DNA from: a virus
Taxonomy: Duplodnaviria > Caudoviricetes
Virus record (IMG/VR): IMGVR_UViG_3300042908_000332
Location: 1 to 60,636 of that record
DNA: 60,636 nt
Reading direction: 5' to 3' (one strand)
Part shown: one piece after another, positions 1 to 29,433 of the stretch
How positions within the stretch are numbered: the stretch's first letter is position 1
How the letters are laid out: each line of letters opens with the position of its first letter
The notes under the pieces: model-generated
The model's input: only the letters and a program-made list of their open reading frames with translations
Told to the model about the DNA's origin: nothing
Database searches by the model: none
Position numbers and translations under genes: made by a program

Positions 1-52
1 CCCCGACTAATGGATTTGGAATCCATTGTGCTACCAATTACACCAATGACGC
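1..52 (-). tRNA. trnW: tRNA-Trp(CCA), 3' part cut off by window edge
   Basis: Minus strand reads GCGTCAT-TG-GTGT AATTGGTA GCAC-A-ATGGA TTCCAAA TCCAT-TAGTC-GGGG: acceptor 5' strand, D arm, anticodon arm with CCA, start of T arm. Confidence 0.9.
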
Positions 53-3851: not shown

Positions 3852-4271
3852 TTACCCCCTTACATTAAACTTTGGCATAACAAATCCTTCTTTCTTTTTA
3901 TCTTCCTTAGATACGTTTGTCCACTTGTCAATCTGCTCCAGTCTAGAGAAATACTCTACGGTGCAGTACTTATGATTATTCTCTGAGTGGAACTCGTCAT
4001 CCTTAGCGTTCTCCATTGCAACTTTGATGTCATCTAAGCTGAAATGCTTAAGTATTTCCTTGTACTTGTTGACAACCTTTTTGGTCATCACACGTGAACG
4101 CTTTTGGAAAACTTCGTTAAAGATATTTAATATTTTCAGAACATCATCGCCTGATGCAACGGATGTCATTGAATCAATATCTTTCTTGGCAGCATTGAGT
4201 ATTGCCGTCTTTTCTTCTGAGAACGGCCCGAATATCCTATCGAGCTCATTCTCTAAATGTTTTAGTATCAT
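3852..4271 (-). CDS. putative replication initiator/helicase loader (phage replication protein C-terminal-like domain)
   Basis: Directly upstream of dnaB; FNEVF...FSLDDIKVAMENAKDDEFH...KYCTVEYFSR resembles C-termini of phage replication proteins. Confidence 0.55.
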   Translation of the reverse strand: MILKHLENELDRIFGPFSEEKTAILNAAKKDIDSMTSVASGDDVLKILNIFNEVFQKRSRVMTKKVVNKYKEILKHFSLDDIKVAMENAKDDEFHSENNHKYCTVEYFSRLEQIDKWTNVSKEDKKKEGFVMPKFNVRG

Positions 4272-4276
4272 GGTAG

Positions 4277-4591
4277 TTAATCTAAAAAGTCCTTAATGCA
4301 TTCAGTGTTTATCTCATAATCTCTAGATTTTTTACGGTGTTTTTCGTAGTGGTTAATTGTAGCATGATCACATCCTATAAGCTTAGAGAGAGAAGTCATA
4401 GTGCTGTATGCGTTCAGATACTTATTGTTTTTCTTCCACCATAGTACAACAAAATGCTTTCTATCTATAAGTTCTTGCTTCCTGCTTTTATTTCTGATGT
4501 CATATGAACTAACCACCATTTCGAGTAGCCTATCATGTACGCTAGTACCATCTATGTGTCCATTGTTTACTAACCAATCTTCCCAACTCAT
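4277..4591 (-). CDS. DnaA C-terminal-like HTH protein
   Basis: KSRKQEL..RK...LSKLIGCDHATINH matches the DnaA domain IV DHxT(V/I)xH pattern. Confidence 0.65.
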   Translation of the reverse strand: MSWEDWLVNNGHIDGTSVHDRLLEMVVSSYDIRNKSRKQELIDRKHFVVLWWKKNNKYLNAYSTMTSLSKLIGCDHATINHYEKHRKKSRDYEINTECIKDFLD

Positions 4592-8279: not shown

Positions 8280-8523
8280 CTTCAAACAATTCATCTTTGT
8301 ATTTAGCAATTGTCTCTTCTAATCTAATGAACAACATCGCTGTAGCATCGAGATATTCTTGAGGTACTTCTAAGCCTTGTCTATGAAATGCTTCAATGAT
8401 TTGATGACCACATTCAGTTGCGCATCTATACACAGTCATAGGATGTAGGTTCTGCTTTACAAACATAAATGATAAGTTGAACACTATTTGTTCAGCACTT
8501 AATCTTTCTAATTTAGTTTCCAT
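8266..8523 (-). CDS. hypothetical protein
   Basis: ORF with A-rich start region. Confidence 0.65.
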   Translation of the reverse strand: METKLERLSAEQIVFNLSFMFVKQNLHPMTVYRCATECGHQIIEAFHRQGLEVPQEYLDATAMLFIRLEETIAKYKDELFEDELY

Positions 8524-9169
8524 TTGTTTTAGTTTTAATGATGTGTTCTGACCATTGCCTTGCCATTGCCTCAGCTATACCCGGAAATGTCTTTGACCGC
8601 ATCTTTGACCTTTCATCAGATGGCAGGTGCCAGCATTCAGCATACCAAGAAGGCATTGATTTACCACTTTCGAAGAACTTACGAGGGGCAGGCTCTACAA
8701 CACTCGTTGGTGTTAGTTCAGGCAATCCTTTTAACCATAAACACGTTTTCTTTTCGAATGGATCTCCGAATTGAAATGGGTTAATTATCTGATTAGGTTT
8801 ACGCCATTCAGTACTCATTATACCAACAGGGTTTTCTATAGCGATATAATCAGCATTGGCATTAGCAAATAACATAAAGAAGTTGATAGCATCTTTTCTA
8901 TCTTCAATTCTTTTCAGTGCTTTATCGCCATACTTTTCTACATTGAACCATCTGTTTCCAGTTACAGTCAAATAGGTGCAAGGTGGGAATGCTATGATTA
9001 AATCCCATTGTTGTTCTAATAACTTTGTTACATCTTGTTGCAGATGCCATTCAGGGTGACCACCTGATTCAGGAAGTATATCACAACTATATGCTTCGTG
9101 ACCTAACTTTCTAAATTCTTTTGTTACTGCCTGACTTTCTTCGCAGGCTAATAAGATTCTTAATTTCAT
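8513..9169 (-). CDS. DNA cytosine-C5 methyltransferase-like protein
   Basis: LLACEESQ, SCDILP, DLIIAFPPCT (catalytic PC), IENP, RSKTFPGIA. Confidence 0.8.
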   Translation of the reverse strand: MKLRILLACEESQAVTKEFRKLGHEAYSCDILPESGGHPEWHLQQDVTKLLEQQWDLIIAFPPCTYLTVTGNRWFNVEKYGDKALKRIEDRKDAINFFMLFANANADYIAIENPVGIMSTEWRKPNQIINPFQFGDPFEKKTCLWLKGLPELTPTSVVEPAPRKFFESGKSMPSWYAECWHLPSDERSKMRSKTFPGIAEAMARQWSEHIIKTKTNGN

Positions 9170-9184
9170 ACTCTTTTATTTATA

Positions 9185-9450
9185 GCTTCGCTTTTATACT
9201 GCATATACCACACAGCACTTAAATCTCTTAATTGAATAGAGATACTCCCACCAATGACACTTCCCTCTGCGACCTTAGCTATTTATTATAGGCTTCTTGG
9301 TTCACTTGTTCTTTTACCTTTCAGTATGCAGTACTCGTTGTCAAGCGTTCAGACAGAGCGAGATTTTATTTATCGAACAAGCGTTCATTGTGAGACATTG
9401 TTTTTGGTAAAGATGTTCAATGGTATACAACACCCGTATGTAATAGGGCA
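9185..9450 (-). ncRNA. candidate ~270 nt structured non-coding leader
   Basis: No credible ORF; several long-range inverted repeats (9197-9205/9325-9333, 9246-9257/9385-9395, 9303-9311/9375-9383, 9204-9210/9421-9427). Confidence 0.4.
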
Positions 9451-9451
9451 T

Positions 9452-9486
9452 AAAAAAACCCTAGCCGTCTCGTACTCAGCTAGGGT
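9452..9486 (-). terminator. intrinsic terminator
   Basis: ACCCTAGC/GCTAGGGT stem followed by T run. Confidence 0.8.
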
Positions 9487-9545
9487 CAGTATATATCTAC
9501 CATGATATAATTCTAATCTTAGATATCGAAGTACGAGTTCGACAC
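9452..9545 (-). ncRNA. small RNA/attenuator leader with kissing loops and anti-start-codon linker
   Basis: Promoter TACATTTG, hairpin GTGTCGAA-CTCGTAC-TTCGATAT, linker TATCATGGTAGATATAT, terminator CCCTAGC-(loop containing GTACGAG)-GCTAGGG-T7. Confidence 0.7.
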
Positions 9546-9547
9546 CA

Positions 9548-9555
9548 CAAATGTA
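9548..9555 (-). promoter_or_regulatory. Bacteroidota -7 promoter element TACATTTG
   Basis: Consensus match directly before the leader hairpin. Confidence 0.75.
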
Positions 9556-9596
9556 TTAAACATTTTGAAATAAAAAAATTTGACAGTGATAATTTT

Positions 9597-9983
9597 TTAA
9601 TTAAGCCATGCATAAACCTGATCACTAGCCTTCTTATTTGAGTTCTTAAGCTCAGGCATAATGATTTCGTATTTGATACTTATACCGGATCCTCCTGAAT
9701 TCATAACGTACATTCCATCTTTCATTACTAATACTGTAGATGGGCTGTATATAATATCTATGGGCAGCTGTGGTAGTTCTGATTCTCCGATTAAGTATAG
9801 ATACACATCATTCCAAAAGTCATAGCCTTCCCTGGACTGTTCCCAATCAAATAGCGTCATGAGTTCTACTGATGCAAGCGTACCTTCTTCTTGGTATGCT
9901 ACATTGAAATCATCCATGTTGCTAACGATTAAGTCAACATATTTCTCAGGTAGTCTTTGGAGTAGTATGTCTATGATTTTCAT
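9597..9983 (-). CDS. hypothetical protein
   Basis: ORF with FDWEQSREGYDFW motif. Confidence 0.7.
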   Translation of the reverse strand: MKIIDILLQRLPEKYVDLIVSNMDDFNVAYQEEGTLASVELMTLFDWEQSREGYDFWNDVYLYLIGESELPQLPIDIIYSPSTVLVMKDGMYVMNSGGSGISIKYEIIMPELKNSNKKASDQVYAWLN

Positions 9984-13888: not shown

Positions 13889-14197
13889 TTAAATTGCTAA
13901 TCCTTTTACATCTATCAATTGTCCGTCCCATAGCTCACCATTGAGATACCATTGCCAATTCTTTTGGTTTATGTGTACTCCAGGAATTGCGTTGAGACGT
14001 TCTTTTGTGGTCTTGGTGAACCATCCTGTTGTCGAGATGGATAAAGTGCGCTCAGGGTCATTATATCGGTACGCAATGCGATTACCGTATAGCTTCATGA
14101 TGGTTACATTTGGCAATACTTCGATTGTCATGTTGTCTTTCTTGAATGGTCGAGCGTTCATGAATGCATCGACTGCTTGTGCTGTTATCTTTTTCAT
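13889..14197 (-). CDS. hypothetical early protein
   Basis: LYGNRIA...GWFTKTTKERLNAI...QKNWQWY; start preceded by ATCTACC. Confidence 0.8.
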   Translation of the reverse strand: MKKITAQAVDAFMNARPFKKDNMTIEVLPNVTIMKLYGNRIAYRYNDPERTLSISTTGWFTKTTKERLNAIPGVHINQKNWQWYLNGELWDGQLIDVKGLAI

Positions 14198-14209
14198 GGT
14201 AGATTGTAT

Positions 14210-15620: not shown

Positions 15621-15851
15621 TTATCTGTTTTTGTGGTTTAAACGGTAATATTTCTTGAGTTCATCTAATTCATCGGCACTCTTATTTAAATTAATTTCAA
15701 GGTACTCGTAGAATTCATTTGTATCTCTCAAAGATTCATACAATTCTTTACTTTGTTTGTGTTGACCATTTATTTTACTCTCGTATATGTAGCAAAATAA
15801 TTCTTCCCATGTTTGGAATTCAAGGTCTTGAGGTTCTAAAAACTTTTTCAT
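15621..15851 (-). CDS. hypothetical early protein
   Basis: YIYESKINGQHKQ; start preceded by ATCTACCATA. Confidence 0.75.
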   Translation of the reverse strand: MKKFLEPQDLEFQTWEELFCYIYESKINGQHKQSKELYESLRDTNEFYEYLEINLNKSADELDELKKYYRLNHKNR

Positions 15852-15870
15852 TATGGTAGATTTTTGTGGT

Positions 15871-16125
15871 TTACTTTGTGCTTTTTATCCAAAGTTCTTT
15901 TGATAATAGACCTTTTTGTATTGATAATTCTGCGGCTTCCTTCAGTATGCCTTTGCCTGAGAAGTCAAGACCGCTTATGTATTCGCCCCATTTGCCAAAC
16001 CTTGCAATTACAGTTGGTCTCCTGCCTTGAGCGCAAAAGTACAGGTCGTAGTCAGTTCCATCCCTTGTTACTGAATCTAAATGAGTGCAGTTGTCGCAGT
16101 CGTGTTCGTGAAATACTTTTTTCAT
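15871..16125 (-). CDS. hypothetical early protein with HDCxxC motif
   Basis: MKKVFHEHDCDNCTHL...DLYFC...TVIARFG...EYISG; start preceded by ATCTACCA. Confidence 0.75.
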   Translation of the reverse strand: MKKVFHEHDCDNCTHLDSVTRDGTDYDLYFCAQGRRPTVIARFGKWGEYISGLDFSGKGILKEAAELSIQKGLLSKELWIKSTK

Positions 16126-20064: not shown

Positions 20065-22125
20065 ATGCGTCAATCACAAGACGGTATAGCTCGAAGGCCA
20101 ATACTTACCACAGACTGGAAGCCTACACACGCTGAATTTGATTATCCAAAACCATTCGTAGATTGGATTGATAGCATCAACAGCGGCTGGCAGAACAAGA
20201 TAAGTTTTAAGCCTTTCGATTTATACTGCGAACAAGCTAGGATCTGGTTACAGGATGATACCATGTTAACCGACTTCGACAACGAAGAAGATCAATACAA
20301 CTGGCTAGCCACAGAGATACAGAAATGTAACGACAACACATTATACTTCTGTAACAAGTACGGTTTTATTAAAGAAGATAAAGCCGAAAACGGTATGCTA
20401 CGCTATCAAGCGTGGGATGCACAGAAAGTACTCCTATTTTTATTTGACTGCGGATACTCCATGATGATAGGTAAAGCCCGACAAATTGGTTTTACCACTA
20501 CAATGTGTCTTGCAGGGATGAAAAGAGTAAATCTCAACAAGTCCTACTTCATTAAATTCGTTACCCATTCCAAAGATAAAGGTGTCGAGATCTTCCGAGA
20601 TAAAGTAAAGTGGACCTACACTAAGATTCCTGACTACATTGCTCAGGACGTAAAGAACTGGACAGACCAAGTAATGTCATTCGATAAGAAGGGTGAGAAG
20701 AAAGGTCGTGACGAAGGTGGTGCATCTCGCTTTCAGGTAGATAGTCCGCAGGTAGATGCAATCAACGGGGGTTCGCCATCGGCAGTATTCATCGATGAAA
20801 TCGGTCTATTTGACATATTCGGTGAGATGATGCGTGAAGGTCGACCTGCTTTATTTAAGTACAACCCGGAAACTGGCAAGATGACCATGCAACAGCAGTT
20901 CTTAGCATGGGGTACAGGAGGTGAAATGGACAAAGGGGGCTCGGTATTCGAGGCAGAATTTAAGATGTGTCTAAGTCAGTGGAAGGAAAAAAACTACGAG
21001 TATGGAATCATACCATTATTCTTCAACGCCTATGCACGAAGAGGTGTCACAGACGAACACATCAACAACGAACGTAAAGCATACCTTGCATTGGAAGGAA
21101 CCAAAAAAGGAGAAGTTGCCAAAGTTCAGTTCCACCAGCATTATCCTATCACAATTGACGATATGTTCCTGCGAAAAGCAAGAACGCTCGTTCCGATTCA
21201 TTATTGTAATCAAAGATTAAGCGAGATATACGGTAAAGATACACCCATAGAGTACGGTTACTTCGAGCCTATTATGGATATGTCACAGCCAACACCCGAC
21301 CTAATCACCGAATATCGCATTACAGGCGCTAGATGGATCAATACATCAGGTAGAGAAGACGTATCCACCACGGCAATGATTGTACATCACCCACCAAACG
21401 GTGAAATATGGAAGAATCGTTGGTATCAAGGGACTGACCCCATCAATTCAGAGACAGGTCACTCAATGATGTGTAGTGCCATATGGGATTCACTTACTAA
21501 TTCCGTTTCTTCTGTAGTATTCCATAGGGATCGCAAGTTTAAGTACACTTACCTACAGGTACTTTTGCAAAGTCTGTACTATGATCAGCAGAAAAGAGGT
21601 GGCGTAAAGGAACTAGTGGAGAATAACATTGGTGATATGCACGTAGACTTCCAAGAGATACACGGATTTAAGACAAAATTTACCGCTAACGCACAACTTC
21701 CTGAATACTTTCAAACTTATGGTGGGAAATGGTTCGGCATTTCCAACAAAGCTAACACAGCACCAAGGATTATTGCAAAAGTGGAGGAAATGATTGATGC
21801 CTACGGCATCAACATAGACGTTCCGTGGATCTGGGAGCAGCTGAAGACCTTCGTGGAGAAAGATTTGAAGAGCTCAACTAGCCATCGTCAAACTAGATAC
21901 CAAGCTGCGGATACCAGGTATGATTATGATGATGCCATCTTTGCTATTGGTTTTGCATATATCAATGCGCAGGCACACGCAAGGTACGAACCTGAAAACA
22001 TCAAGTCACAGGACAAAGAAACACACGTAATTACCAAATATGTACAGTCAAAAGAAACAAATTATCGTATGAAGTTGGCTAAGGTAGATAAGCGCACGGG
22101 TCGTATCCTAAAAATATTGAACTAA
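20065..22125 (+). CDS. terL: terminase large subunit
   Basis: GKARQIGFTT Walker A, VFIDEIG Walker B, WGTGG coupling motif, GTDP and YDDAIFA nuclease aspartates. Confidence 0.92.
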   Translation: MRQSQDGIARRPILTTDWKPTHAEFDYPKPFVDWIDSINSGWQNKISFKPFDLYCEQARIWLQDDTMLTDFDNEEDQYNWLATEIQKCNDNTLYFCNKYGFIKEDKAENGMLRYQAWDAQKVLLFLFDCGYSMMIGKARQIGFTTTMCLAGMKRVNLNKSYFIKFVTHSKDKGVEIFRDKVKWTYTKIPDYIAQDVKNWTDQVMSFDKKGEKKGRDEGGASRFQVDSPQVDAINGGSPSAVFIDEIGLFDIFGEMMREGRPALFKYNPETGKMTMQQQFLAWGTGGEMDKGGSVFEAEFKMCLSQWKEKNYEYGIIPLFFNAYARRGVTDEHINNERKAYLALEGTKKGEVAKVQFHQHYPITIDDMFLRKARTLVPIHYCNQRLSEIYGKDTPIEYGYFEPIMDMSQPTPDLITEYRITGARWINTSGREDVSTTAMIVHHPPNGEIWKNRWYQGTDPINSETGHSMMCSAIWDSLTNSVSSVVFHRDRKFKYTYLQVLLQSLYYDQQKRGGVKELVENNIGDMHVDFQEIHGFKTKFTANAQLPEYFQTYGGKWFGISNKANTAPRIIAKVEEMIDAYGINIDVPWIWEQLKTFVEKDLKSSTSHRQTRYQAADTRYDYDDAIFAIGFAYINAQAHARYEPENIKSQDKETHVITKYVQSKETNYRMKLAKVDKRTGRILKILN

Positions 22126-25120: not shown

Positions 25121-25397
25121 TCTGTAACTCTAATTCTTCAATTAATTCCTCAACTAATTTCTCAGCAATAGCATCATCTTCAGAATACGGACGAAATCTA
25201 TTGGCTAGAAAATATTCATACGGAGAGTTTGATGGCATTTCTATCTCAGCAAGTTTATACCCAAGAACCATATGCTGTCTTGCCAACTTTGCCGCATCTA
25301 CAACTGTGTAAACTGAACCCTTCTTAATCCAAGATGATTTAGGAAATGTACTTGGCATTCCTGAATCGTTAACGCAAATTACTTTGAAATTATTCAT
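25113..25397 (-). CDS. hypothetical protein
   Basis: MNNFKVICVND...WIKKGSVYTV...YFLANRFRP; ORF-track extension to 25517 overlaps the RNA leader. Confidence 0.75.
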   Translation of the reverse strand: MNNFKVICVNDSGMPSTFPKSSWIKKGSVYTVVDAAKLARQHMVLGYKLAEIEMPSNSPYEYFLANRFRPYSEDDAIAEKLVEELIEELELQNV

Positions 25398-25401
25398 GTC
25401 T

Positions 25402-25484
25402 AAAAAATAACCCCCCGTAAGACTAGCAGGAAAACAGGGGGTAGAAAAACCTTTATGAAGAAAATGCTGAGGTGCTAGTCTCGG
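25402..25484 (-). ncRNA. attenuator leader/small RNA with complementary loops
   Basis: Promoter TAGGTTTG (25487-25494); 5' AGACTAGCA complementary to TGCTAGTCT in the loop of terminator ACCCCCTGT/ACGGGGGGT-TATTTTTT. Confidence 0.65.
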
Positions 25485-25525
25485 TACAAACCTACGAACC
25501 TTTTTTCTATCCACCAAATTTTAAG

Positions 25526-25682
25526 TGAAAAAAAATAAAGAAAGAAAAAGAAAAATAAGAAAAGAGAAAAAGAAAAAAAGAAGCAAAAAAAGAAAAAGAG
25601 AAAAGAAAAGATTAACTATATATTCGTATATACTACGTATATACTCACATATACTTAATCAAAAAGAAAAAGAAAGAAACCC
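25526..25682 (+). repeat. polypurine A/G tract and TATAC repeats
   Basis: ~85 nt almost only A/G, then tatatattcgtatatactacgtatatactcacatatac, then a second A/G tract. Confidence 0.7.
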
Positions 25683-27228: not shown

Positions 27229-29433
27229 ATGAGTTATATGTTCAGCACAGGTAGACTTAGACCTAATAAGCTACAAGGAAAAAAGGATAAGGACTACCAC
27301 AAAGAATATGCGAAGTATTGTCTTGCTATTATGAGCAACTATATTTATCGCAGATATATCAATAAGTGCTTGATCAACTGGTCATTCTTTAAAGGTCAGG
27401 ATGGTCAATGGATCTTCGAAGAAGACATCGAAGCATTCTTTTTGGATGAGTCAGGAGATGTCCGTAACCGACTCAAATGGACAAAAAACGTTATCAAGCC
27501 AATGGTACAGCAGTATGTTGGTAATGCTATTCGTTTATCATACGATGCTCGTGCCAACTGCGTATCTGATTTTGTAATCAACAAGCGTGAGCAGGAACTT
27601 AAAAGACTTAAATCCTTACAAAAGGTTGCTGAGTCAATGCCTTTCTTAAAAGAAATTATTCAAGAAAATAATCCTGTTCTTGATACTGAAATGGAAACAG
27701 AAGAGCTGTTCTACAATACTTTTGTTGAGAATTACGAAAAGGACATTAATAATCTCATTGAGTTCATTGCAAATGAAGTTAACATTGATGAGTTAAAAAC
27801 ACAAATTACTCGTAACCTAGCTCTTTGTGGATTAGGTATCTATAAAGGTTATGAAGCAGGTGAAAATTATATGGCAGAAGCTATTAACCCACTATTCTTT
27901 TTGTGGGATATGTCTGCTAAGAAGCCTGATTTAACTGATGCTGAGTTTATGGGTGAATGGTACTACATGGATAGCCCATCTATCTTTGAGAAGTATCCAC
28001 ACCTAACAAATGATGAGCGTGAGGCAATTGAGAACTACTCAAATCACACGAATCAAAACAATATGCACAAAATTGTAAACGGAATCTATACCATCCCAGG
28101 CGGAAAGGTTCCTACTTACGAAGTATATTGGAAAGATGTAGAGAAGAAAGAATACGGGTGGGTTATGGATGAGTATGGTTATCCTTACTACACCATGGTT
28201 AACGATCCAACTTCTAAGTATACTGATAAAGACCTAATTGAGCCTCAGACTGAAAAGCACAAAGAGGAAATGGGTAACAAGAAGAAACAAACTATCTATG
28301 TAGATATTCTTCGCTACTGCATTATGATTCCTCAAGAGGAGATTGGCTATGGAGATATTGTACTTGAGTACGGAATTATGCCTTACCAAGAGAAAAATCT
28401 TTATGATCCTGCAAATGTTCGTTTCCCTTATAAGTGTTACACTTGGGTATATGACCGCGGAGAGGTTTTAACGCCATTAGATGACGTTATTGATCCACAA
28501 AGGTTCCTTAACCGTACCATATCAGTTATCGAGTCTCAGATGGCAAATATGCGTGGTAGCGGCACTGTTATCTCTAAGTCTGCTGTTGACGATAGAGATG
28601 GAGAGGCTGATATTACAAGAAACATTAATTCATCTAAACCAATCTTCGTAGATACTGACCGTGTTGGATCAGTGCAGAATGCTATTGGTACTTATGGTAC
28701 AAACATTGGTCCTGGAACGCTACAGATGTTCCAAGTTATTCAGGCTGTACAGCAATCTATTCAGGATGTTACAGGTGTGAATGAGGCTATGACGGGTACT
28801 CAAGGTGGTGGAGATGTATTAGTTGGTGTAGTTGAAGCTCAGATTCAACGTGGTTCATTAGTGCAAGAGCCGTTCTATTGGGCATTAACATCTATCTTGC
28901 GTCAGGCATACGAGCATATGGCTACAGTTGGTAAGGCTATCTATCACGACAATCCACGTAAACTTGCTATGATGGTTGGAGATGATGGTCTAGGTAGAAT
29001 TGAAATTACAAAAGACCATTTACTACAGGACTACAGAATCTTTATTAAGCGTTCAGAAACACCTGAGCAAGGAATCAATGCAGCAAATCAGTTATTGTTC
29101 ACATTGCTTCAAGCAGGTATGATTGATCAGATTACTTTTGCTAATTTGTTTAATCGTGCTACACCTGAATTAGTTGCAGATGCATTAAGAAGATTCCAAA
29201 GAGATAAATTGATGGCTCAACAACAAGCAGATAAGGCTTCGAATGAAGGAATGATTCAAGGTCGTGCCGCACAGGCGGATATGATTAGTCAGTTACAACA
29301 AGCTGAACAGGATCAAGAGCAGAAGCAACTTGAGATGCAAGACTTAGCTCATCAGCAAGAAATGGAAAAGGTAGCTTTAAAAGAAGGAGCTAAAACAGAA
29401 AGAGATATAATTAAAATGCAAGGTTTGCAATAA
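27229..29433 (+). CDS. portal protein
   Basis: 734 aa, position before scaffold and capsid, QSIQDVTGVNEAMTG motif, Gln-rich coiled-coil C-terminal barrel as in P22-like portals. Confidence 0.88.
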   Translation: MSYMFSTGRLRPNKLQGKKDKDYHKEYAKYCLAIMSNYIYRRYINKCLINWSFFKGQDGQWIFEEDIEAFFLDESGDVRNRLKWTKNVIKPMVQQYVGNAIRLSYDARANCVSDFVINKREQELKRLKSLQKVAESMPFLKEIIQENNPVLDTEMETEELFYNTFVENYEKDINNLIEFIANEVNIDELKTQITRNLALCGLGIYKGYEAGENYMAEAINPLFFLWDMSAKKPDLTDAEFMGEWYYMDSPSIFEKYPHLTNDEREAIENYSNHTNQNNMHKIVNGIYTIPGGKVPTYEVYWKDVEKKEYGWVMDEYGYPYYTMVNDPTSKYTDKDLIEPQTEKHKEEMGNKKKQTIYVDILRYCIMIPQEEIGYGDIVLEYGIMPYQEKNLYDPANVRFPYKCYTWVYDRGEVLTPLDDVIDPQRFLNRTISVIESQMANMRGSGTVISKSAVDDRDGEADITRNINSSKPIFVDTDRVGSVQNAIGTYGTNIGPGTLQMFQVIQAVQQSIQDVTGVNEAMTGTQGGGDVLVGVVEAQIQRGSLVQEPFYWALTSILRQAYEHMATVGKAIYHDNPRKLAMMVGDDGLGRIEITKDHLLQDYRIFIKRSETPEQGINAANQLLFTLLQAGMIDQITFANLFNRATPELVADALRRFQRDKLMAQQQADKASNEGMIQGRAAQADMISQLQQAEQDQEQKQLEMQDLAHQQEMEKVALKEGAKTERDIIKMQGLQ

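Follow-up and report, generated by a model that had tools for sequence, protein, structure and literature searches.

Results

Anatomy of the kissing element

We analyzed the 60,636-nt (60.6-kb) virus record IMGVR_UViG_3300042908_000332, here called the window, to which all coordinates refer; the related loci compared with it carry numbers of the form L###. On the minus strand, between a gene for a protein termed F0 and a DNA methyltransferase gene, lies a promoter-proximal RNA of ~90 nt, hereafter the kissing element, in which a 5' hairpin and an intrinsic terminator hairpin pair through their loops. This hairpin-kisses-terminator pairing is a real RNA feature. The parts of the element, its neighbors, and its counterparts elsewhere are listed in Table 1.

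Table 1. Positions of the kissing element, neighboring features, and further instances of the design
Feature	Position	Strand	Description
F0 gene	9597-9983	minus	128 aa; upstream gene, directly before the element in F0-linked subfamilies
Promoter -7 box	9555-9548	minus	TACATTTG; Bacteroidota TAnnTTTG type
Hairpin 1	9522-9546	minus	core stem 9543-9538 with 9530-9525, GUCGAA/UUCGAU
Loop 1	9537-9531	minus	CUCGUAC, 7 nt; kissing partner 1; fills the whole hairpin 1 loop
Linker	between hairpin 1 and middle hairpin	minus	12-13 nt
Middle hairpin	9509-9492	minus	UAUAUC-AUGGUA-GAUAUA; strand complementary to AUCUACCAUGAU
Short linker	between middle hairpin and terminator	minus	
Intrinsic terminator hairpin	9485-9459	minus	CCCUAGCUG-AGUACGAGA-CGGCUAGGG
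Terminator loop	9476-9468	minus	AGUACGAGA; kissing partner 2, GUACGAG, at 9475-9469
U7 tract of terminator	9458-9452	minus	T5-T7 in relatives
Structured leader	9170-9451	minus	~280 nt, noncoding; from terminator to methyltransferase start codon
DNA methyltransferase gene	8513-9169	minus	phrog_757, E = 5e-69; first gene after the leader
Second element	25395-25518	minus	unrelated sequence, same design
Second element, promoter	25518-25487	minus	TTTG..TAGGTTTG; full Bacteroidota-type match including -33
Second element, 5' segment	25481-25473	minus	AGACUAGCA, 9 nt
Second element, terminator-like hairpin	25442-25410	minus	UGCUAGUCU in 15-nt loop, 25428-25420
Gene ATG behind second element	25397	minus	~12 nt after the U tract
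Distant version L141			CCUCAAC / GUUGAGG
Distant version L142			UACGGAAGGA / UCCUUCCGUA
Distant version L144			GUCGCAA / UUGCGAC
Distant version L145			CACGCUACCA / UGGUAGCGUG

Transcription would start near 9543, as placed from the position of the -7 box, whose consensus (TAnnTTTG) was taken from excerpts of PMC7366714. The box (TACATTTG, TATATTTG, or TATCTTTG, the two middle letters varying) is kept in the inspected family loci that include upstream sequence, in 18/18 loci of the leader scan described below, and in 4 further distant loci. A -33 TTTG, ~17 to 21 nt upstream, was not found for this promoter, which is absent from the six full promoter matches of the window. A motif, TCACT(A/G)TCAA, lies upstream of the promoter (window ~9575-9590) and, by eye, recurs at varying distance in several subfamilies; it may be a regulator site.

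Both loop sequences reported in the first-pass annotation, CUCGUAC and its exact complement GUACGAG, are present at their positions on the minus strand. The terminator loop, which that annotation counted as 13 nt, measures 9 nt when two more pairs (U.G and G-C) are included. With a 9-bp stem containing six G-C pairs and followed by U7, the hairpin has the form of an intrinsic terminator; a consensus terminator scan missed it, probably because the scan admits only loops of 3 to 8 nt. The minimum free energy fold yields the same hairpin 1, middle hairpin, and terminator at -31.4 kcal/mol (z = -2.52), a value equaled by 1 of 200 shuffles.

The plus-strand open reading frame (ORF) 9254-9505 has no family match and is split or of other length in relatives, so that the stretch is regarded as noncoding. 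Two further candidate readings were rejected by eye: the length of a mini-ORF starting at the linker AUG is not conserved, and most loop variants lack the purine that an anticodon-loop mimic would carry at the position matching 37.

Covariation of the two loops

Within the window alone the 7-mer match is not significant (4 occurrences versus 2.58 expected, with 28/100 shuffles reaching 4), and it is the comparative data from relatives that place the pairing far beyond chance. The close family comprises 31 loci including the window, some of them on shared contigs, and provides 24 distinct element sequences. After exclusion of L115, which is cut by a contig end, the terminator loop is complete in 30 loci, and in 29 of these it contains an exact 7-nt complement of loop 1; the pairings involve 13 different loop 1 sequences across the close family.

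Pairing of the loops, the core of the first-pass annotation, is strongly supported by covariation across these relatives. In the 24-sequence alignment all seven kissing pairs change on both sides (48/168 cells), and 94.6% of the cells are paired. The nine unpaired kissing cells come from only two rows, L124 and L094; the L124 row is shifted by one column in the alignment, yet its loops are exactly complementary, and L094 is taken up in the Discussion. When the partners are slid against each other by 1 to 3 columns, pairing over the whole structure drops from 93% to 26 to 40%. Cognate loop duplexes have predicted energies of -9.5 to -12.6 kcal/mol (L094, -5.7), the non-cognate mean is -3.6, and 4% of non-cognate duplexes come within 2 kcal/mol of the cognate value.

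The hairpin 1 and terminator stems are likewise supported by pairs changed on both sides. The six core pairs of hairpin 1 are kept, pair 8/20 changing from GC to UA in 3 sequences, while its three outer pairs are unpaired in 13 to 14 of 24 sequences and are therefore probably upstream of the first transcribed nucleotide. Pairing in the terminator stem reaches 99.5%; one of its pairs has changed on both sides and four on one side. The middle hairpin is invariant in all 24 sequences.

A third pairing site was not detected: no further copy of the loop 7-mer stands at a consistent place in the collected loci, and extended loop complements in the window are within chance (41 versus 34.6 expected and 20 versus 13.2). 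A downstream CGAGTAC seemed to follow the loop type in 3 sequences and was rejected when it failed to do so in 13.

Loop diversity among close relatives

The loops change fast. The difference over all sequence pairs is 0.451 in the 14 loop columns as against 0.171 in the rest, and near-identical cassettes can carry strongly different loops: L118 and L122 differ at 6/14 loop positions versus 2/82 elsewhere, L085 and L118 at 8/14 versus 3/83, and L085 and L122 at 12/14 versus 4/81. Conversely, backbones that diverge by up to 25% can share a loop pair, and backbones 0 to 5% apart can carry different ones. Mean backbone distance is 0.151 for same-loop and 0.174 for different-loop comparisons (325 of 5,000 permutations were as low), and loop type is thus almost independent of backbone. 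Three loci on contigs whose names share a prefix (L115, L116, and L119) have three different loop pairs, and identical F0 proteins occur with different loops.

These relatives were gathered in several ways. In a phage collection, neither the DNA of the region nor the portal protein found a match. Among 80 loci with relatives of the downstream methyltransferase, the intergenic DNA is shared by two contigs only, one of which has loop 1 UCCACAC and terminator loop GUGUGGA and thereby shows four matched changes. Pattern scans gave 10/19 real viral stretches, 19/19 real metagenome stretches, and, in genomes, 1/10, a 10-kb contig binned as an uncultured Polynucleobacter metagenome-assembled genome (MAG). 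A promoter-plus-terminator pattern that left out the linker recovered the same viral set (9/9), and the middle hairpin is present in all nine of these loci although the pattern did not include it. Unrelated stretches were dropped from the scans on inspection (9/19, 9/10, and 1/10).

Distant versions and a second copy

More distant homologues of F0, with 37 to 49% identity, are followed by the same design in unrelated sequence. Ten further versions were found in which a 5' hairpin or segment and the terminator loop share 6 to 10 nt of complementarity. A pattern built on the conserved leader matched 24 viral stretches, 19 of them new loci and 18 of these with enough upstream DNA; all 18 possess a TAnnTTTG box, a 5' partner starting 7 to 10 nt past the box, and an exact complement of 6 to 10 nt in the terminator loop. 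Eight distinct pairs are represented, including those already seen in L142 and L145. In total, 22 of 23 different 5' partners have an exact complement. What is kept in the distant versions is the promoter box, the early 5' partner, a terminator with an oversized loop, and the complementarity; the linker differs in sequence, the middle-hairpin sequence is lost, the upstream gene is a different one in some, and some relatives have an unstructured 5' partner at the start of the transcript.

A scan of the window revealed nine terminator-like hairpins with loops of 7 to 21 nt, two of which have a complement of at least 7 nt within the upstream 130 nt: the kissing element and the hairpin of a second element (Table 1). 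Two relatives share the sequence of the second element, and a third, L152, carries at this site another leader, whose partners are GUGUUGGCA / UGCCAACAC. Judged from this arrangement, the gene starting at 25397 can only be expressed through terminator read-through. Just upstream of the second promoter, at 25524-25620, lies a low-complexity tract with a period of ~8 nt that is purine-rich on the plus strand and pyrimidine-rich on the minus strand.

Genomic context

Minus-strand genes run from ~17200 down to position 1. Minus-strand TAnnTTTG boxes are located at 16034, at 9548, and then at 8460 and 7721, with none within 16034-9555 or within 9548-8467; these positions indicate that a long early operon stops at the kissing element and that the next unit begins with it. 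Downstream of the methyltransferase gene follow small ORFs and genes for an Erf/Rad52-like protein, a DnaB-like helicase, a MazG-like protein, an HNH endonuclease, and SSB, and in relatives genes other than the methyltransferase follow the leader. Terminase-like and portal genes lie far from the kissing element, at 20065-22125 and 27229-29433.

F0 has no Pfam match and belongs to no known family. Its 28 relatives are all hypothetical proteins from this group of uncultured phages, and an F-D-W...E-G-Y-x-F-W stretch is among the residues that never vary. AlphaFold gives a poor model (predicted local distance difference test score of 54), too weak for a structure search. F0 was rejected as a specificity partner or RNA-binding protein, given its lack of a Pfam match and the identical copies with different loops.

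The ~280 nt that separate the terminator from the methyltransferase have the look of a structured RNA or leader not yet described. Conservation approaches 100% in close relatives and exceeds that of the kissing element itself; RNAalifold predicts 45 pairs from 16 sequences, 15 of them with compensatory changes. The leader includes a helix capped by GAAA and two blocks that do not vary, CAGAGGGAAGUG and UAUGCAGUAUAAAAGCGAAGCUAUAA; it has no Rfam match. At the leader's place some relatives have a second, different conserved region (types II to IV). Expression was followed by means of contigs, which show no ends, in four of the six RNA runs that contain 5 to 11% of the sampled words; metatranscriptome contigs cover the leader at 9234-9444 and 9196-9461.

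A Shine-Dalgarno-like motif precedes only 4 of 72 ORFs, and TAnnTTTG boxes stand 22 to 25 nt before 7 start codons. Since both the scarcity of Shine-Dalgarno motifs and the box-to-start spacing fit what excerpts of PMC7366714 describe, the host is probably a member of the Bacteroidota. At the end of the record a tRNA fragment (positions 1-52, minus strand, 32.9 bits in Rfam) is cut by the record end, and ARAGORN finds no tRNA; the fragment may mark the edge of the assembled record.

Discussion

The kissing element is apparently undescribed. In an Rfam search of the whole window only the tRNA fragment at 1-52 reaches the gathering score, and a search of 9100-9650 at E values up to 10 returned seven weak hits, none of them relevant. 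Full-text searches of the published literature found no description of a hairpin-kisses-terminator design, and the design is absent from the main text of a catalogue of structured phage RNAs (PMC10690425), whose supplementary tables could list the motif.

The closest tested precedent is the guanidine-IV riboswitch (mepA motif), in which, according to the part of PMC11611296 consulted, the kiss is between the loops of a 5' hairpin and of the terminator hairpin and hinders completion of the stem, so that transcription reads through, and lengthening of the terminator stem sterically disfavors the kiss. The kissing element is alike in that a 5' hairpin loop pairs with a terminator-hairpin loop. 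It differs in having no covariance-model match (neither at the gathering score nor among the seven weak hits), and in place of a conserved guanidine pocket it has hypervariable Watson-Crick loops, with 13 loop 1 sequences and variation in all 7 pairs. Also different is its setting, a phage early region followed by a long structured leader, with a DNA methyltransferase or small phage ORFs downstream and no guanidine exporter genes. Loops that are perfectly Watson-Crick and differ between phages argue for a specificity code and against a conserved ligand pocket.

Small sense RNAs derived from the leader of an operon are known to control that same operon in other phages. The CI RNA of P4 (seqA/seqC) and the c4 RNA of P1 and P7 pair with the leader from which they come; pairing leads to premature termination or blocked expression, and the complementary stretches differ between phages and set heteroimmunity. 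The anatomy here is similar, both partners lying within ~90 nt of a leader and no third site having been found in the genome. Here, however, pairing joins two hairpin loops, of which one belongs to the terminator itself, and the kissing element has no Rfam C4 or IsrK match at the thresholds used. Processing, trans action, and a lysogenic setting belong to the P4 and P1 systems, whereas the present element is known from its sequence.

Loop-loop kissing likewise sets the specificity of RNA I and RNA II of ColE1, a system in which a transcript linked to replication is under the control of a small RNA. The pT181 system has an intrinsic terminator as its output, and loop and upper-stem mutations give orthogonal pairs (PMC3753616, in part). 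The regulators of both plasmids are antisense RNAs from the opposite strand, so that a single mutation changes both partners, whereas both loops of the kissing element are on one strand and matched double changes are needed. No plus-strand TAnnTTTG box, which would point to an opposite-strand countertranscript, was found inside 9440-9560, and a sigma-70-like plus-strand site at 9565-9593 points away from the element. Because the loops differ between close relatives, they resemble the specificity determinants of trans-acting RNAs, and it is on this account that trans action is proposed; the diversity suggests an allele-specific action similar to that of P4 CI or ColE1.

As the best explanation we favor, at a little better than an even chance, a kissing-loop attenuator with loop-coded, self-specific trans control. 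The loop-loop helix would form while the terminator is being made and would set the ratio of stopping at U7 to reading on. Action on the terminator is suggested by the fact that one partner is always the terminator loop. By analogy to guanidine-IV, the kiss would most likely hinder completion of the terminator and favor read-through. It is plausible that the pairing tunes termination into the downstream methyltransferase and replication genes, as the first-pass annotation had proposed, because there is no promoter-like box between the terminator and the methyltransferase gene, because the second copy sits directly before a gene start, and because guanidine-IV is a tested case of a hairpin loop kissing a terminator loop. 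The element is probably a gate in front of the phage's replication-side genes.

If the guanidine-IV direction holds here, terminated molecules would have free loops, and the terminated ~90-nt RNA with both loops could act in trans as a competitor for the loops of same-allele leaders that are still being transcribed; the outcome would be a feedback specific to self or a control resembling immunity. Of the proposed mechanism, this trans step has the least support. A bolder version of it, which we regard as possible but would not expect to prove right, is that of a self-addressed sense-strand RNA whose "address" loops recognize only nascent leaders of the same allele and switch their terminator, with selection keeping the loops diverse.

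Several observations weigh against this attenuator reading. The sole true exception to the pairing is L094 (positions 946-1040), in which loop 1, CCUCACC, mismatches the element's own terminator loop, GUGUGGA. Compared with L086, it shows 0/81 differences outside loop 1, five changes in loop 1, and none in the terminator loop, and it may be either a natural mismatch or a chimeric assembly of co-occurring variants. Taken family-wide, variability is no higher in the loop columns than in the unpaired linkers (entropy of 1.01 to 1.04 versus 1.01 to 1.06), and one subfamily of nine loci has a single loop pair with zero loop variation. Whole cassettes are also exchanged by recombination; the 600 nt upstream of L112 and L130, for example, differ by 0.5%, while a comparison by eye shows many differences between their cassettes. 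That the kiss leads to read-through is assumed by analogy, and a kiss inside the finished molecule, if formed, leaves the loops unavailable in trans. No integrase or repressor was recognized among the scanned ORFs, so that an "immunity" setting is conjectural. No contig from the four metatranscriptome runs, in which contigs show no ends, lies on 9452-9547. Finally, the only named genome contig with the element is the Polynucleobacter MAG bin, which clashes with the Bacteroidota-type promoter.

Among the alternatives, the one that fares best, although we consider it unlikely, is a stand-alone trans-acting small RNA (sRNA) in which the kiss serves as a structural clamp or end-protecting stabilizer and the middle hairpin is a seed directed against the starts of early mRNAs. 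In keeping with it, the element has its own promoter box and a strong terminator, and the middle hairpin is invariant in 24/24 close relatives. The complement of the middle hairpin, AUCUACCAUGA(U), falls at the start codons of two ORFs, 13889-14197 and 3852-4271, and lies 2 nt ahead of the start codon of a third, 15621-15851. The common start context, (A/U)CUACCAU(G/A)A, occurs on the minus strand at 14193-14203, 4267-4277, and 15850-15860 and, in relatives, at other ORF starts. In family loci 10 of 11 matches with at most one mismatch are on the sense strand, before open frames of 63 to 490 codons, and Bacteroides sRNAs that pair across start codons (PMC7366714, in part) provide a precedent. 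The count in the window is nevertheless within chance (4 matches including the element itself versus 1.54 expected, with 8/100 shuffles reaching 4), and distant relatives keep the kiss without the linker sequence. For L141, whose linker is a different one, a search of the 64-kb record gave no sense-strand target of that linker, only one forward match with three mismatches and no ATG, and controls gave similar results. A purely structural clamp, moreover, leaves unexplained why the loops change faster than the linker. The same evidence bears on the "clamp" of the first-pass annotation, in which the kiss would hold the RNA so that an anti-AUG linker is displayed: complementarity to the start regions of a few early genes stood up, but the window counts are those of chance, the sequence is lost in distant relatives, and the replacement in L141 lacks a target. 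The anti-AUG linker may be kept as a weak lead.

It is also conceivable, with a very low probability, that the RNA self-assembles, its complementary loops joining molecules into dimers or rings, and that assembly rather than termination is its function. Large RNA-only assemblies joined by kissing loops have reportedly been found, and the loop covariation would be expected for such contacts. Two mutually complementary loops in one RNA are the defining trait of the phi29 packaging RNA (pRNA), in which, as far as the consulted part of PMC4201828 goes, the pairing is essential and differs between related phages. The likeness to the kissing element extends to these two loops in one RNA. The pRNA loops, however, pair between molecules, around a three-way junction and on the packaging motor, whereas the present element lies in an early-gene leader and has a terminator loop as one partner. 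Rfam gives no match, the pRNA model included, and the element is located among early genes, far from terminase and portal and with no packaging-motor context; that one partner is always the terminator loop and that a second copy lies directly before a gene point to transcription control. A pair of DNA-level inverted half-sites of 7 bp each, for a dimeric DNA-binding protein with phage-specific specificity, could also have both arms altered in parallel by a change in the protein, but this is scarcely credible: each half-site falls exactly in its own covarying hairpin loop between promoter box and U-tract, the spacing varies continuously from 59 to 65 bp and so is not in helical phase, the complement is 6 to 10 nt long with a 5' partner that is unstructured in some relatives, and the neighboring F0 can be identical while the loops differ.

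The pairing, followed through more than 20 sequences on a nearly fixed scaffold, is an unusually clean natural example of a covarying tertiary contact. As an attenuator, the element would add a ligand-free, sequence-coded kissing-loop terminator switch to a form so far known from one riboswitch class and would place it at the junction of early and replication genes of uncultured freshwater phages. The loop diversity hints at RNA-based discrimination of self from non-self among competing phages. If the self-addressed version is true, each lineage would control its own replication-side genes and ignore, or be ignored by, co-infecting relatives, in an RNA-only counterpart of heteroimmunity or plasmid incompatibility. 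The family would then hold a natural library of more than 20 orthogonal kissing pairs, and such naturally matched loop sets could serve as orthogonal parts for RNA circuits.
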